64,000 nt of DNA from a virus (lineage: Duplodnaviria > Heunggongvirae > Uroviricota > Caudoviricetes): IMG/VR virus record IMGVR_UViG_2541047873_000001. The stretch is one strand, 5' to 3'. Both the position numbers and the translations under genes were made by a program. Below are positions 37,701-45,081 of the stretch, piece by piece. The number at the start of each line of letters is the position of its first letter. Positions within the stretch are counted from its first letter, which is position 1. The notes under the pieces were generated by a model. The model saw nothing but the letters and a program-made list of their open reading frames with translations. It was not told where the DNA came from and ran no database searches.

Positions 37701-38610
37701 TATTGGTGCTAAATTTATTTCTTATAGCGACAATCATCGTCCTGCGGCGGAAGCCACTATCAGCCATATGCGACGTATTCGCTCGGAGGACGAATTTGAT
37801 CGCCCCGTCTTTAAGTGGGTCGGCGGCAAATTTTCTGCACTGCCCATTATCTTCGAACACCTGCCCCACGGAAAACGGTTGATAGAACCTTTCGTTGGAG
37901 GTGGCGCTGTTTTCACTAATGCCGGATTTAAAAGCAACCTGCTGAACGATATCAATAATGACCTGATTAACTTCTATCAGACATTGCAGCGTGAAGGGCA
38001 TTCTCTTATCACACTGGCATATCGTTTTTTTCAGGATTACAACTCTGCTGATGCATTTTTGAATGTTCGCAATGCATTCAACAATGGTGCTTATGATTCC
38101 CTTCACCATGCAGCGGCGTTCCTGTATCTCAATCGTCATTGTTTTAATGGCGTCACTCGCTATAACCGTAAAGGAGAGTTCAACGTCGGATATGGAAAGC
38201 AGAAATCCCCCCACTTCCCTCTCGCGGAAATGGAGGCGTTCCTGGCTGACGATATTTCAAAGTATTCGGAATTTGTGTCCGGCGATTTTGCTGGTGTAAT
38301 TGAGGCTGCAGGGAATGATGATGTGATTTTCTGCGATCCCCCCTATGAACCATTGCCCGACACTACCGGATTTACAAATTACTCAGGGCATAGCTTTAGG
38401 TTTGAAGATCAACAACGGCTGGTGTCACTGCTGGTGGATGCCCACAGACGCGGAGCGAAAATTGTGATAACAAACAGTGGTGCGCCTAACATTCGCGAAC
38501 TTTACGTTGGCAATGGCTTCAAGGTGTATCCTATGCCATCCCGTCGCTCTGTATCCTGTAAAGCATCAACCCGAATGATAGCTAACGACATTATAGCCAC
38601 GCTCAATTAA
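37693..38610 (+). CDS. dam: DNA adenine methyltransferase (Dam family)
   Basis: GTG start after aaggaggg RBS; FKWVGGK, EPFVGGGAV, FLYLNRHCFNG, DPPY motifs; hairpin terminator at 38613-38636. Confidence 0.9.
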   Translation: MADIGAKFISYSDNHRPAAEATISHMRRIRSEDEFDRPVFKWVGGKFSALPIIFEHLPHGKRLIEPFVGGGAVFTNAGFKSNLLNDINNDLINFYQTLQREGHSLITLAYRFFQDYNSADAFLNVRNAFNNGAYDSLHHAAAFLYLNRHCFNGVTRYNRKGEFNVGYGKQKSPHFPLAEMEAFLADDISKYSEFVSGDFAGVIEAAGNDDVIFCDPPYEPLPDTTGFTNYSGHSFRFEDQQRLVSLLVDAHRRGAKIVITNSGAPNIRELYVGNGFKVYPMPSRRSVSCKASTRMIANDIIATLN

Positions 38611-38644
38611 GAAAAGCCCCATATGGGGCTTTATAACATCAAAT

Positions 38645-38740
38645 AAACGCCATTACGGTACACTAATAACACCATTCTGGTACTAAAAAGGCATCAAGGT
38701 AGTATCAAAATACCACATGGAACCAAAACGGTGTTATTCC
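38645..38740. repeat. partition-site repeats downstream of parG
   Basis: Repeated aacacc...ggtactaaaa and ggtatcaaaatacc motifs, also found upstream of parA. Confidence 0.5.
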
Positions 38741-38744
38741 GGCG

Positions 38745-39032
38745 TCATTTTGTATCCTCAGACTCTGCAAGCATGAGGATAGCATGGCGGATCATATTCA
38801 ATTTGCTGCGATTATGCTTTTTGCTTAACGCATCAAGTACCTGGTACTCGTATTCATTGAAGCCAACACGAATGGATTTAAAATCACGTGGGGCGTCCTT
38901 ATCGAGCACTTTGTTGTCTTCTGGTTGCTCACCCGGCACCAAATCAGCTTTGCTGGCAAAAGCCTCAATTCGGCGTTCAAGATCGAGGTCTTTTACTTCG
39001 GGGGCTTTTACCGATTTACGAGGCTTAATCAC
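38745..39032 (-). CDS. ParG-like ribbon-helix-helix centromere-binding protein
   Basis: 95 aa; small protein overlapping the ParA stop; C-terminal SIRVGFNEYEYQVLDALSKKHN resembles RHH partition proteins. Confidence 0.5.
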   Translation of the reverse strand: MIKPRKSVKAPEVKDLDLERRIEAFASKADLVPGEQPEDNKVLDKDAPRDFKSIRVGFNEYEYQVLDALSKKHNRSKLNMIRHAILMLAESEDTK

Positions 39033-39666
39033 TTAATAACTCCTTAACCAACATCTGGATTTCACCTTTAGCTTTCCCGTTGTCCATCTCAACAACGCCC
39101 TTCCCTTCAGCCATACAATCGCGGTAAACCTTGCGATCGCGAATGATGGTTTTCAGCAACTTCAGTTGCGGATATTCAGCAAGGTACTCTTTGGCCTCAT
39201 TGGCTTCATTCACAACCGGATTGGATGGGGCCATTGTTAAGACTGCGCACGCCTTAATGCTAGGATTAGGCATCAGATCCAAAGCCTCTTCAAAGACTTC
39301 AACAAAATGCGCCAGCGTGTCTAAATCTGGCTGAGATGGCCTGAATGGAACAAGCAAAACATCCGCCGCAGTAATACCGGTGCGCATCTCTTTGCTATCA
39401 CGACCAGCGGTATCAACAACCACAAATTCATAACGCTTGTCCAGATCAAGAAGTGTTTCACGAATATTCCCAAACTTCTGGACGCAATGAATTACTGGAG
39501 AAACCTCTGCCGCATTACGGTCCGATGCCCAACGGGCAGATGTTCCTTGCTTATCTGCATCAAGTAGAACTACGTCCTTATTTGCGCGGGCAAGCTCCGC
39601 ACAAATGTTTACGCTGGTGGTTGATTTGCCACAGCCACCTTTTTGGCTGGCTACCAATATAATCAT
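39025..39666 (-). CDS. parA: ParA-family partition ATPase (small ParF type)
   Basis: 213 aa; deviant Walker A KGGCGKST at N-terminus, no N-terminal HTH extension. Confidence 0.85.
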   Translation of the reverse strand: MIILVASQKGGCGKSTTSVNICAELARANKDVVLLDADKQGTSARWASDRNAAEVSPVIHCVQKFGNIRETLLDLDKRYEFVVVDTAGRDSKEMRTGITAADVLLVPFRPSQPDLDTLAHFVEVFEEALDLMPNPSIKACAVLTMAPSNPVVNEANEAKEYLAEYPQLKLLKTIIRDRKVYRDCMAEGKGVVEMDNGKAKGEIQMLVKELLSD

Positions 39667-39669
39667 ATC

Positions 39670-39900
39670 CGTTCCTCGGTGTTATTTTGGTATCAAAATG
39701 GTTCCAAACAGAAGCCTTATTGATGCGGTTTTGGCTCTATAGTGGAGTCACTATGCTTTGCAAAAGTATAACACTAAACACTCTAAATTTGCCCTCTGTT
39801 GCATCCTGTTTAACACGAAATCAGCCTCAAAGTGGAACCAGACACAAAACAGCACCATAACAACACCGTTTTGGTACTAAAATAACACCAGATTAGAACC
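39670..39900. repeat. partition-site (centromere) repeats upstream of parA
   Basis: ggtgttattttggtatcaaaatggttcc and aacaccgttttggtactaaaataacacc: iterated GGTA(C/T)(T/C)AAAA and AACACC elements. Confidence 0.55.
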
Positions 39901-39907
39901 ATGACAG

Positions 39908-39936
39908 TATAAAAAAGGCTGCAAATTGCAGCCTTT
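39908..39936 (-). terminator. rho-independent terminator after parR
   Basis: On the minus strand: hairpin ggctgcaatttgcagcc followed by T6. Confidence 0.6.
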
Positions 39937-39951
39937 GAAGATGTAGATTTG

Positions 39952-40317
39952 TTAATCAGGGAGTGAGTTTGCCAAATTCTGTGCAGAGCGGCTTTTCGAA
40001 ACGCCAGGTTTTTTAACATCCACTGAGGCAGAGGGGTTTCCTTCAGGGTTTTCCCGAACTTCAGGCGAAATTTCAAGAAATGAAACCAGCATTTTTCTGA
40101 TCACTTCAGGGCTATTATCACCGGATAAAAGCGATGCCAACATGGGAGGTAATCTGCTATCAACCTCGCCAAGAGCGATACCTGCAAGCATCGCTGTGCG
40201 CGCCATATCATTGCGATCTCTTAATGGATGGCCCTCAAGTTTTGCATCAGCATATTGCTCACTGGCGTTAAGACCAGGACGAAGATAAAACAATACTTTT
40301 CGACGTTCCTGAGACAT
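39952..40317 (-). CDS. parR: ParR-like centromere-binding protein
   Basis: 121 aa directly downstream of parM; N-terminal RKVLFYLRPGLN...ARTAMLAGIAL resembles R1 ParR. Confidence 0.55.
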   Translation of the reverse strand: MSQERRKVLFYLRPGLNASEQYADAKLEGHPLRDRNDMARTAMLAGIALGEVDSRLPPMLASLLSGDNSPEVIRKMLVSFLEISPEVRENPEGNPSASVDVKKPGVSKSRSAQNLANSLPD

Positions 40318-40327
40318 GGCAACCTCA

Positions 40328-41287
40328 TCAACCGATAGATTTTAGACCATAGACAAGAGCAAGTTGTGGATCATCAGCAACGAAAAACCTATCGTCACGA
40401 ATGTTTACCTGCTCACGGATAGCATCAGCAACAAGCGGCGCGCCGCCACCAATGACCATAACATGCGTGTATCCTTTGAAATCACTGATCACATCCAGTA
40501 CGCGTGTACGGAGTCGTTCTATGCTTGACGAAATGGCTTTCTTAACATCATCAATAGCTGACGGATCGTTAATATTGTCGGTCAAATAATCCTCATCATC
40601 ACGATTAATGATTAATTGATCGACATTATAATTAGAGGTTTCGGTATTCGCTTTTGCAAGTGCCTGTCTGACCTCTTTAGTTACCAGCGAAACGCCGAGA
40701 TTAGAATCGCCAAATACGCGAGAAACGGCGGTCATTTGCCCGGCGACCATCGACACATCCAGAGTGGTCCCACCAAGATCAACAATAAGCACAGAATGCG
40801 CTGGCACAAGGCTGTCGCACAGACCGATCCCTGCGGGTATTGACTCCGGGCGCACAGTCACTTTTTTGATAGTAAAAACCTGACCTTTGTTAAGGGTGAC
40901 TGGTCGCATCAGGCTGGCCTTTTTCCGCTCAATATTTTTCATGTTGTATTGTGCGTCGTCGTCATAAAACTCTGCCAGTGGCAACGTGACAACTATTTCC
41001 ACTTCTTGAGGCTCAATGCCACTTGTAAGCAGGGCATGATGAACAGCAAGCACATTAAGCGGGCTGTATTGCCATTCAACGTTATTCGTCGGCAGCACAT
41101 CCGGCGAGATCAAGTCATATGAATATTTTTCGTCATCAATGATGTAGTTAAACGGCTTTCCTGCGCCAAATGTGGCGGACCATCCACGTTTAAAACTGTT
41201 CGGACAGATATGGGTTCGAGTTTCCCCGTCTTGTTCCCACAGCATTTTGATATTGGTAGAACCATCGTCGATAAAAATGCGCATCAT
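40328..41287 (-). CDS. parM: ParM actin-like segregation ATPase
   Basis: Internal start MMRIFIDDGSTNIKM matches the ParM/StbA N-terminus; actin-fold phosphate motifs (DLGGTTLD, VIGGGA). Confidence 0.85.
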   Translation of the reverse strand: MMRIFIDDGSTNIKMLWEQDGETRTHICPNSFKRGWSATFGAGKPFNYIIDDEKYSYDLISPDVLPTNNVEWQYSPLNVLAVHHALLTSGIEPQEVEIVVTLPLAEFYDDDAQYNMKNIERKKASLMRPVTLNKGQVFTIKKVTVRPESIPAGIGLCDSLVPAHSVLIVDLGGTTLDVSMVAGQMTAVSRVFGDSNLGVSLVTKEVRQALAKANTETSNYNVDQLIINRDDEDYLTDNINDPSAIDDVKKAISSSIERLRTRVLDVISDFKGYTHVMVIGGGAPLVADAIREQVNIRDDRFFVADDPQLALVYGLKSIG

Positions 41288-41294
41288 ATTGCTC

Positions 41295-41480
41295 CACTTC
41301 TGAGACACATTTGAGAAAGAATTGAATTTTATATGAGAAAACAAAATAAGACCAGAAGTTAGATAGCGTAAAAAGCATCAAACTAGAGATGTAAAAGAGA
41401 CACAAAAGAGACTTATATGACACATGATATACCCACGATACCCATTTGAGACAAATCAGAGACAAATATGAGAAGTAAGA
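41295..41480. repeat. parC-like centromere iterons
   Basis: At least eight copies of (T/A)GAGA(C/A)A at about 10-11 bp spacing upstream of parM. Confidence 0.6.
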
Positions 41481-41536
41481 AATCTGAAGAGTGAAAATCA
41501 CAAAGTGGAGAAGATTTAAGAAAAAGGAGGTGTTAG

Positions 41537-41821
41537 ATGAGTGCAATAGCGACCAGTGACACAGTTTGTTCTGGTCATGGAGGATTCCCTCCGCGACCTG
41601 TAGCAGAAACAGTTTCCTGGTTTACCGTAAATGGAAAGCCAGTGGTTGTAGATGGGGGAGCGTTCCCCAGCCATACTGACGGAAATAGCGCGCACCCCGG
41701 ATCAGCCGTATCGACGCGCTCATGGTTTGCAATAGGCGGGAAAGGAGTTGTTTGTGTGGGAGATCCCCTTTCTTGTGGCTCAGTCATCGCCAATGGTGAG
41801 GCAATTTTTCAGGTGTCATAA
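41537..41821 (+). CDS. PAAR-domain protein
   Basis: 94 aa; Gly/His-rich with repeated (D/S)GG/GHG elements and conserved Cys typical of PAAR spike-tip proteins. Confidence 0.75.
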   Translation: MSAIATSDTVCSGHGGFPPRPVAETVSWFTVNGKPVVVDGGAFPSHTDGNSAHPGSAVSTRSWFAIGGKGVVCVGDPLSCGSVIANGEAIFQVS

Positions 41822-43302: not shown

Positions 43303-43485
43303 GGCTCCTGAAGCCAGATGTCCTGGCTGTCAGCTTCTTCGAAACCGTGACAGACGTTAAAGTCACTCAAGCGATACTGGCGCTGACGGCCTCTATTTCG
43401 CTCATGCCAATGCATATATCCACCAGCAAATTGAACCGCCCCGGGAATCCTGGAGACTAAACTTCCTGAGAAAGAGGTAAACAGG

Positions 43486-43812
43486 ATGACTAAAAATACT
43501 CGTTTTTCCCCCGAAGTCCGTCAACGGGCAGTCCGTATGGTTCTGGAAAGTCAGAGCGAATATGACTCACAATGGGCGACAATTTGTTCCATTGCTCCAA
43601 AGATTGGCTGTACGCCGGAGACTCTGCGTGTCTGGGTTCGCCAGCATGAGCGGGATACCGGGGGCGGTGATGGAGGGCTCACCACCGCTGAACGTCAGCG
43701 TCTGAAAGAGCTGGAACGTGAAAATCGTGAACTGCGCCGCAGTAACGATATCCTTCGCCAGGCTTCCGCTTATTTTGCGAAGGCGGAGTTCGACCGCCTC
43801 TGGAAAAAATGA
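43486..43812 (+). CDS. IS629 transposase OrfA
   Basis: 108 aa HTH/leucine-zipper protein, recognised as IS629 OrfA by eye. Confidence 0.9.
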
Positions 43813-44699
43813 TGCCACTGCTGGATAAGCTGCGTGAGCAGTACGGGGTCGGACCGCTATGCAGCGAACTGCATATTGCCCCGTCAACGTATTACCACTG
43901 TCAGCAACAGCGACATCATCCGGATAAACGCAGTGCCCGTGCGCAGCGCGATGACTGGCTGAAGAAAGAGATACAGCGCGTATACGATGAAAATCACAAG
44001 GTATACGGTGTGCGTAAAGTCTGGCGTCAGTTGTTACGGGAAGGTATCAGAGTGGCCAGATGCACTGTGGCACGTCTCATGGCGGTTATGGGACTTGCCG
44101 GTGTTCTCCGGGGTAAAAAGGTCCGTACGACCATCAGCCGGAAAGCCGTTGCCGCAGGCGACCGCGTAAACCGTCAGTTCGTGGCAGAACGACCTGACCA
44201 GCTGTGGGTGGCTGATTTTACTTACGTCAGCACATGGCGGGGCTTCGTCTATGTGGCGTTCATCATTGATGTGTTTGCCGGATACATCGTGGGGTGGCGG
44301 GTCTCATCGTCCATGGAAACGACATTCGTGCTGGATGCACTGGAGCAGGCGTTATGGGCCCGTCGACCGTCCGGCACGGTCCATCACAGTGATAAAGGTT
44401 CTCAGTATGTATCGCTGGCCTACACACAGCGGCTTAAGGAAGCCGGATTACTGGCATCAACAGGAAGTACAGGCGACTCGTATGACAACGCGATGGCGGA
44501 GAGCATCAATGGTCTTTACAAAGCGGAGGTAATACACCGTAAGAGCTGGAAAAACCGTGCAGAAGTGGAACTGGCCACACTCACGTGGGTGGACTGGTAT
44601 AACAATCGACGATTGCTGGAAAGGCTGGGCCATACTCCTCCGGCAGAAGCAGAAAAAGCTTATTATGCTTCCATCGGAAACGATGATCTGGCAGCCTGA
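43809..44699 (+). CDS. IS629 transposase OrfB (DDE catalytic domain)
   Basis: 296 aa in the -1 frame relative to orfA, overlap at the A-rich aaaaaatg region consistent with programmed frameshifting. Confidence 0.9.
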
Positions 44700-45081
44700 G
44701 TTCACAGATAAAACACTCTCCAGGAAACCCGGGGCGGTTCAAATGCCAGCGGACAATCGCTATAGTCGATGTAGCCAATACCATTACCCAAACGCGCTTC
44801 GCGCGCCCCGGCTTTCCAGGACAGCAGAAAAGAGTCACGATCTGCCAGCATGACTACAAAATCATCTGGATCGCCTATGCAGTGAAGAATGCCTGCCTTG
44901 CATAACTGTTTGAGTGCCTTGGACTGACTCAGGATGTCTTCACCGTAATACTGAAAACAATCATCAACAATAGCGGGATAGCCAGCGGGTGGATTCAGGC
45001 TGGTTGGTATAGCTGACGCGATAGCCAGCATTAAACGATATTGTGTTTTCGATGGGTTCGCGTGACTCATGTTTCCTCTAC

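Follow-up and report, generated by a model that had tools for sequence, protein, structure and literature searches.

Two partition cassettes of different types lie in tandem in a D6-like phage-plasmid

The window analyzed here is the whole 64,000-nucleotide (nt) stretch of the IMG/VR virus record IMGVR_UViG_2541047873_000001 (Caudoviricetes), which is a D6-like (P1-g2) phage-plasmid. Its partition locus comprises four genes, all on the minus strand. Homology, anatomy, and conservation support two complete partition systems of different types at this locus: a type II cassette with parM and parR, and a type Ib cassette in which parA is followed by the gene of a predicted ribbon-helix-helix (RHH) adaptor of 95 amino acids (aa). 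Read along the minus strand, the 41482-41296 repeats are followed by parM, parR, a terminator, the 39912-39667 repeats, parA, the 95-aa open reading frame (ORF), the 38744-38633 repeats, and a second terminator. The ParMR unit is therefore transcribed first and the ParA unit second. The features are as follows.

41296-41482, minus strand: parC-like centromere and control region, type II, with TCTC(A/T)-core iterons at 11-bp spacing
40328-41284, minus strand: parM (stbA), actin-like segregation ATPase, 318 aa, by Pfam and PDB homology
39952-40317, minus strand: parR (stbB), predicted RHH centromere-binding adaptor, 121 aa, by Pfam and PDB homology
39914-39936, minus strand: strong intrinsic terminator between the cassettes, made up of a T run behind a 10-bp stem with 5 G-C pairs
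39667-39912, minus strand: predicted upstream centromere and operator region, type Ib, with a hexamer array
39025-39666, minus strand: parA, small type Ib Walker ATPase, 213 aa, by Pfam, NCBIfam, and PDB ParF
38745-39032, minus strand: candidate type Ib centromere-binding protein, homologue of D6 orf61, 95 aa, by RHH fold and context
38633-38744, minus strand: downstream hexamer array, type Ib, with ~10 GGTDYY/RRHACC hexamers at 10-11-bp spacing
38613-38632, minus strand: terminator hairpin closing the parA-RHH unit, just after the convergent Dam methylase gene

Each cassette thus consists of an NTPase gene followed immediately by the gene of a small RHH-type adaptor, with a helically phased repeat array alongside, and each forms a separate transcription unit. 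The start of parR lies 10 nt past the parM stop, and the 95-aa ORF overlaps the parA stop by 8 nt. Because the terminator at 39936-39914, whose hairpin is also present in D6, separates the cassettes, the locus is read as two transcription units and not as a single four-gene operon.

The type II cassette is supported as parC-parM-parR by both homology and anatomy. ParM matched Pfam StbA_N (2.1e-69) and the ParM C-terminal domain (8.9e-56), which together cover both halves of the actin fold, and the actin-fold motifs DDGSTNIK, DLGGTTLD, and GGGA are readable in the protein. In the PDB, R1 ParM aligned with it end to end (residues 1-318) at 54% identity and E = 1.7e-110. Identity to the pB171-type ParM was 42%; the pB171 comparisons were made against a pB171-type locus (L006) recovered with the 2jd3 ParR sequence. 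The ParM of D6 is 93.7% identical at the aa level, with near-saturated synonymous sites and a ratio of nonsynonymous to synonymous substitution rates (dN/dS) of ~0.013. ParR was assigned to Pfam Plasmid_stab_B (3.1e-14) with 53 bits over a cut-off of 25. Its residues 3-78 matched PDB 2jd3, the solved N-terminal RHH domain of pB171 ParR (3.6e-7), and its N-terminal domain is 33% identical to that of the pB171-type ParR. ParR shares 65% of its residues with the D6 protein overall, and 11 of the ~14 C-terminal residues are identical.

Ten GAGA cores occur upstream of parM on a single strand only, with 0.7 expected (P ~4e-9), and the autocorrelation of the parC region was strongest at a lag of 11 (z = 5.2). 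Nine of these cores are phased. They form three blocks of three at 11-bp spacing and not one continuous array, and are positioned on the plus strand, listed here in the minus-strand reading, at 41470, 41459, and 41448 (distal block), 41408, 41397, and 41386 (middle block), and 41335, 41313, and 41302 (proximal block, with a degenerate slot at 41324). The tenth, at 41508, is an outlier. The last iterons adjoin the parM ribosome-binding site GGAG (41296-41293). The same block layout and a TCTCA core were found in the parC regions of D6 and of NZ_CP069886, a plasmid of the main D6-like group, although these regions are not alignable with that of the window. Beside the array and divergent from parM, a plus-strand gene at 41537-41821 carries the annotation PAAR-domain protein in its relatives (a homologue of P1 upfC, D6 record), and its start is located ~55 nt beyond the last phased iteron.

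ParA, the ATPase of the type Ib cassette, carries the deviant Walker A motif KGGCGKST at residues 9-16 of its 213 aa and has no helix-turn-helix (HTH) at its N-terminus. The Pfam families AAA_31, MipZ, CbiA, and VirC1 all matched over their cut-offs, and the best solved relative was ParF of TP228 in the PDB (3e-18, residues 4-211). The NCBIfam model ParA_partition (NF041546) was covered over its whole length with E = 2e-46, and by the NCBI threshold the protein is classed as a relative of this family and not as an equivalog. It is 43% identical to the pB171-type ParA, 45% to the ParA of IncI/K, and 100% to that of the main-group D6-like plasmids, and dN/dS against D6 is 0.055.

Both flanks of the parA-RHH genes are enriched in a degenerate hexamer, counted as GGT[GTA][CT][CT] in either orientation. 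The upstream flank (39667-39912) holds 10 copies with 1.5 expected (P ~5e-6) and the downstream flank (38633-38744) holds 5 with 0.7 expected (P ~8e-4). In neither flank did any other autocorrelation lag exceed lag 11, which reached z = 5.2 upstream; downstream, lags 11 and 22 ranked highest with z = 2.9 and 2.7, respectively. In the upstream flank, the distal GGTDYY array is spaced at ~11 bp (39900, 39889, the 39878 region, 39867, 39856, and on from 39839), and three inverted hexamers 11 bp apart, GGAACC-N5-GATACC-N5-AACACC (39705-39678), are placed just before the parA ribosome-binding site. An extended -10 element, TGTTATACT, was assigned by eye at 39773-39765, ~60 nt upstream of these proximal hexamers; a consensus scan found no sigma-70 consensus upstream of parA and did not flag the extended -10. 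Both the extended -10 and the proximal hexamer site are conserved between the window, D6, and NZ_CP069886. The octamer GGTGTTAT has six exact copies in the 64-kb window, and four of them fall in these flanks, where each flank holds two in inverted orientation. Inverted repeats were detected upstream (I2, 25 nt, 88%) and downstream (I10, 17 nt, 88%), and the downstream array contains the inverted pair AATAACACC...GGTGTTATT.

Arrays at 11-bp spacing also flank two distant ParA-RHH relatives (L007 and L009) on both sides, including directly downstream of the RHH gene. The cassette of L007, an 85-kb Logan contig of ERR12361423 (1600-2940), encodes an RHH protein ~44% identical to that of the window and is flanked on both sides by very regular 11-bp AGCACC/GGTGCT/GGTACT hexamers, which are of the window's type and give a lag-11 autocorrelation of 0.5 downstream; its neighboring genes had no Pfam matches. 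In D6 (L001, 2069-3730) and the main D6-like group (L012, 1-430), a glutaminyl-tRNA synthetase gene (glnS) is located between the Dam methylase and RHH genes. The window and its close relatives, compared at window 38610-38745, do not carry this gene, so that the downstream hexamer array of the window abuts the methylase terminator.

The RHH fold of the 95-aa protein was assigned by combining an exhaustive search with HMMER, Pfam scans of the whole family, and a second AlphaFold2 (AF2) run. A word-indexed homologue search with this protein recovered close relatives only, and the exhaustive HMMER search recovered 125 related clusters of similarly small proteins. In a Pfam scan of 78 relatives, 24 matched NikA-like and 20 RHH_1, while others matched RHH_7, TraY, or TacA, all of which are RHH families. 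At every inspected locus, the family member is encoded directly downstream of a ParA of ~211 aa, usually beside a replication initiator, and the neighboring replication genes were RepB, RepA_C, and IncFII_repA. The modeled protein begins with the basic stretch MIKPRK, followed by a helix at residues 16-29, a flexible linker, and a predicted C-terminal RHH domain at residues ~52-92. The first AF2 model, built on a 9-sequence alignment, was poor (mean predicted local distance difference test score, pLDDT, 61) and was not used as evidence, nor were its Foldseek matches, since all were non-significant. When the 78-sequence family was searched as a profile against the PDB, only weak matches to RHH proteins came up (CopG and HP0222, E ~0.1), which are no more than suggestive. 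Based on the RHH families of its relatives and its placement downstream of ParA, the 95-aa protein is predicted, in fold as in context, to be an RHH adaptor of type Ib. Its dN/dS against D6 is 0.12. Three candidate families were rejected: ParG, with no Pfam ParG match and no sequence match to PDB 1p94; the ParB of pB171, with E = 2.1 by BLASTP against the pB171-type protein and an hhalign probability of 0.7%; and the ParB of IncI/K, with an hhalign probability of 0.1%.

These results agree in most points with the initial annotation, which had described a tandem of two complete partition systems that differ in type, a small Walker-type ParA with repeat arrays on both flanks, and an actin-like ParM paired with ParR. 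Its label "ParG-like" for the ParA partner is borne out for the fold and not for family membership. The helical spacing proposed for the parC-like array was recovered at 11 bp, and the count of at least eight (T/A)GAGA(C/A)A iterons was too high, as only 6 sites fit this strict consensus.

The region 38560-41560 is 98.7% identical at the nt level to the Escherichia coli plasmid NZ_LR890273.1 and 85% identical to phage D6. NZ_LR890273.1, the closest full-length relative, is a non-mobilizable 92.8-kb plasmid with a RepB replicon that carries phage structural genes, phd/doc, higBA, and a Cre-like recombinase. Its RepB initiator is encoded ~11 kb from the partition locus, and no P1-type parAB is annotated in it. 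Compared with this plasmid, the window has a ~1.3-kb insertion at 43432-44739 within otherwise 99% identical sequence. The insertion carries two overlapping ORFs (43486-43812, 108 aa, and 43809-44699, 296 aa) that resemble the orfA/orfB transposase pair of the IS3 family, judged by eye only.

In PLSDB, the partition locus was found in 122 records and the D6-type capsid gene in 121. The hosts of both sets were alike, with 98 Escherichia, 17 Salmonella, and 6 Shigella records, and the locus set differed by one extra Enterobacter record. In D6 (orf58-orf61), NZ_LR890273.1, and pYU39_89, the four genes have the same order and orientation and are bordered by the Dam methylase region on one side and the upfC/PAAR-like gene on the other, on an element with a D6-type capsid and a RepB replicon. 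The window differs from D6 in its ParR, in a parC that is not alignable, and in having no glnS next to the RHH gene. Against D6, dN/dS ranged from 0.013 to 0.12 across parM, parA, and the RHH gene, which by these estimates are under strong purifying selection; parR was too diverged at synonymous sites for an estimate. Since the locus tracks the D6-type capsid and dN/dS is low, a decaying remnant of a cointegrate is unlikely, and the past cointegrate suggested by the initial annotation is disfavored.

One D6-like record departs from this pattern. In NZ_CP069647.1 (L013, 27950-31536), which is 94% identical, only parR is annotated, and the frames of parM (230 and 117 aa) and parA (114 and 81 aa) are broken. 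This may reflect real decay or assembly indels, and the many indels at 94% identity fit assembly error.

Several of these genes had been annotated before. In the D6 GenBank record (MF356679 / NC_050154), orf58 is labeled StbA and orf59 StbB, and orf60 is noted as possibly ParA. The functions named for partition in a D6-like Salmonella plasmid were cop, parA, stbB, and parM (PMC6799933), D6 appears with ParA-Ib and an RHH protein in a review table (PMC8026635), and the partition genes of P1-g2 elements were described as apart from the replicon (PMC7969092). A 2026 survey counted pairs of type-I-RHH and type-II systems on 971 PLSDB plasmids, called the combination previously reported, and cited pB171, R27, and pINV as tested double systems (PMC13245405). 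The two-system arrangement is thus already known for D6-like phage-plasmids and ordinary, as it is annotated in D6, found in essentially every D6-like plasmid, and common on enterobacterial plasmids. For the flanking hexamer arrays and for orf61 as an adaptor, no published description was found other than the "cop" label (PMC6799933), in a search that did not extend to the D6 genome paper. The contrast with the single type Ia ParA/ParB/parS system of P1 is established and expected for the D6 (P1-g2) subgroup.

Among the characterized systems, R1 ParMRC, the type II archetype, resembles the type II cassette, with a ParM 54% identical, a ParR of the same Pfam family, and 11-bp-spaced direct repeats upstream that reach the parM start. 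In the parC of R1, 11-bp iterons flank the promoter in two sets of five. That of the window differs in having three blocks of three, with four slots in the proximal block. The type Ib cassette shares with ParF/ParG/parH of TP228, the type Ib archetype, a small ParA without an HTH, short repeated boxes along the DNA, and, in the model, an adaptor whose N-terminal part is disordered and whose C-terminal domain is RHH. Repeats in TP228 are upstream only, whereas the arrays of the window are present on both flanks, and its adaptor has no sequence match to ParG.

The double locus of pB171, the classic example of such a pair, offers the closest mechanistic parallel to the arrangement as a whole. In this locus (Ebersbach and Gerdes 2001; Ringgaard et al. 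2007; cited in PMC4270457 and PMC13245405), par1 is a ParMRC system and par2 a ParA/ParB system with parC1 and parC2. As in the window, a type II and a type Ib cassette are adjacent on one low-copy enterobacterial replicon, and centromere repeats lie on either side of the type Ib operon. In contrast, the pB171-type operons (L006) diverge from a shared parC1, which allows regulatory cross-talk, whereas the cassettes of the window follow one another on a single strand, are separated by a terminator, and have an upstream array each. Because the cassettes are tandem and not divergent, no parC1 is shared. The pB171-type arrays also have a 7-bp period, compared to 11 bp in the window, and the adaptor of the window has no detectable sequence similarity to the pB171-type ParB.

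The two cassettes show different patterns of divergence within the D6-like group. Compared with NZ_CP069886 (L012), parA is 99.4% identical at the nt level (98% at third codon positions) and the RHH gene 97.9%, while parM, only a few hundred bases from parA, is 80.8% identical (50% at third codon positions) and the capsid gene 79.7%. This patch of high identity (~38780-39700) ends at both flanking arrays, which are themselves 19-92% identical. The ParR proteins of D6-like PLSDB plasmids split into two alleles, with 7 records at least 95% identical to the window, ~113 at ~59%, and none between. The window and six other PLSDB plasmids carry the second ParR/parC allele. parC is not alignable between the alleles, while ParM keeps ~94% identity. 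From these sequence patterns, the parA-RHH coding region looks like a recent gene-conversion or recombination patch, and the ParR/parC specificity pair looks like an older diversification.

By analogy with the characterized R1, pB171, and TP228 systems, from which we infer every binding, ATPase, and movement step, the locus could work as follows. In the type II cassette, ParR dimers would bind the 11-bp-phased TCTC-core iterons of parC through their N-terminal RHH domains, and the ParR-parC complex would capture the ends of ATP-ParM filaments via the conserved C-terminal tail of ParR. Paired actin-like ParM filaments would then grow and push sister plasmids apart, and parC-bound ParR probably also represses the parMR operon. 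In the type Ib cassette, the 95-aa RHH protein would coat the hexamer arrays on both sides of the operon, while ParA dimers carrying ATP would occupy the nucleoid. Hydrolysis of this ATP may be stimulated by the RHH protein through its basic, flexible N-terminus, and the resulting ParA gradient would position the plasmid along the nucleoid. Binding of the RHH protein around the promoter and the ribosome-binding site would give autoregulation.

Taken together, two independent and complete partition cassettes in a conserved D6-like backbone very probably keep this low-copy prophage plasmid in both daughter cells. That both are used is argued from purifying selection and from retention of the pair in essentially every D6-like plasmid. 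Several observations weigh against this reading. No characterized centromere-binding protein in Pfam, NCBIfam, or PDB matched the 95-aa protein directly by sequence, and Foldseek on the first, low-confidence AF2 model gave no significant match, with ParG at the top (E = 1.3). ParA scored 158 bits against NF041546, for which an equivalog needs 180. Taken alone, periodicity supports the downstream array only weakly (max-lag P 0.11), and the parM promoter was not located, as a consensus scan found no sigma-70 consensus in parC. The literature search turned up no functional study of either cassette in D6-like elements. Finally, a contribution of both cassettes is not assured, because one system can dominate in double-par plasmids, e.g., SCP1 and pINV (PMC13245405).

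This last point leads to a possible, less favored explanation, in which both cassettes are intact and only one carries out segregation in E. coli, while the other is needed under certain conditions (another host, temperature, or growth state) or acts mainly against related phage-plasmids, as a determinant of incompatibility or exclusion. Hierarchy and condition-dependence have precedents in SCP1, R27, and pINV (PMC13245405), and the unlike evolution of the cassettes points the same way, with two ParR/parC alleles on the one hand and, on the other, a parA-RHH region 98-100% identical where parM is 81% and the capsid ~80% identical. The strong purifying selection on ParM, ParA, and the RHH gene, together with the persistence of the pair across D6-like plasmids, argues against an idle cassette. 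More tentatively, the two cassettes may not be simply redundant: ParMRC could set a lineage-specific partition identity, i.e., an incompatibility group, and ParA/RHH could be a shared, exchangeable positioning module. We regard this division of labor as rather doubtful. It would fit the two ParR/parC alleles and a parA-RHH patch copied between sublineages without its flanking arrays, and under it the ParA/RHH module would tolerate drift in the degenerate hexamer arrays.

An origin of the double locus as a remnant of a past cointegrate or module capture, with one cassette decaying, is improbable. The parA-RHH genes do occur alone beside unrelated replicons elsewhere (the Kacie_13 plasmid and metagenomic contigs), which indicates that they move as a module, and both the sharp recombination patch in the window and the broken parM and parA frames of NZ_CP069647.1 could be taken as traces of such a history. 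However, the locus is intact in ~120 D6-like plasmids spanning ~20% backbone divergence, dN/dS is low for the three genes with an estimate, and the lone broken copy fits assembly error. Any capture would thus predate the lineage, with both parts maintained since. Roles outside partition were also considered and are very unlikely, be it ParA/RHH as a VirC1/VirC2-like or relaxosome-accessory-like pair or as a regulator with an ATPase partner, or ParMR acting in lytic development. ParA matches Pfam VirC1 over its cut-off (1e-12), and relatives of the 95-aa protein match the NikA-like and TraY families. Yet D6-like elements are typed as non-mobilizable and have no relaxase, ParA is matched best in structure by ParF, which is a partition ATPase, and by a ParA, family members adjoin replication initiators, and the centromere of pB171 par2 is also laid out as phased arrays on both flanks. 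ParM, for its part, is closely related to the partition motor of R1 and is accompanied by a parC-like array.

The double locus matters little beyond correct annotation. It would explain the stable inheritance of D6-like prophage plasmids without a P1-type ParAB. For ~120 D6-like plasmids, in which the partition genes are mostly labeled "hypothetical" or "AAA family ATPase", the annotation gains a predicted RHH adaptor (orf61), hexamer arrays on both flanks of the type Ib operon, and two ParR/parC alleles. The mosaic and allele pattern is a modest evolutionary point. Why type Ib and type II systems coexist is a question for many plasmids (971 in PLSDB) and is not newly raised by the window. If the mosaic does reflect different roles, D6-like plasmids would lend themselves as a natural collection in which to ask why plasmids keep both types.

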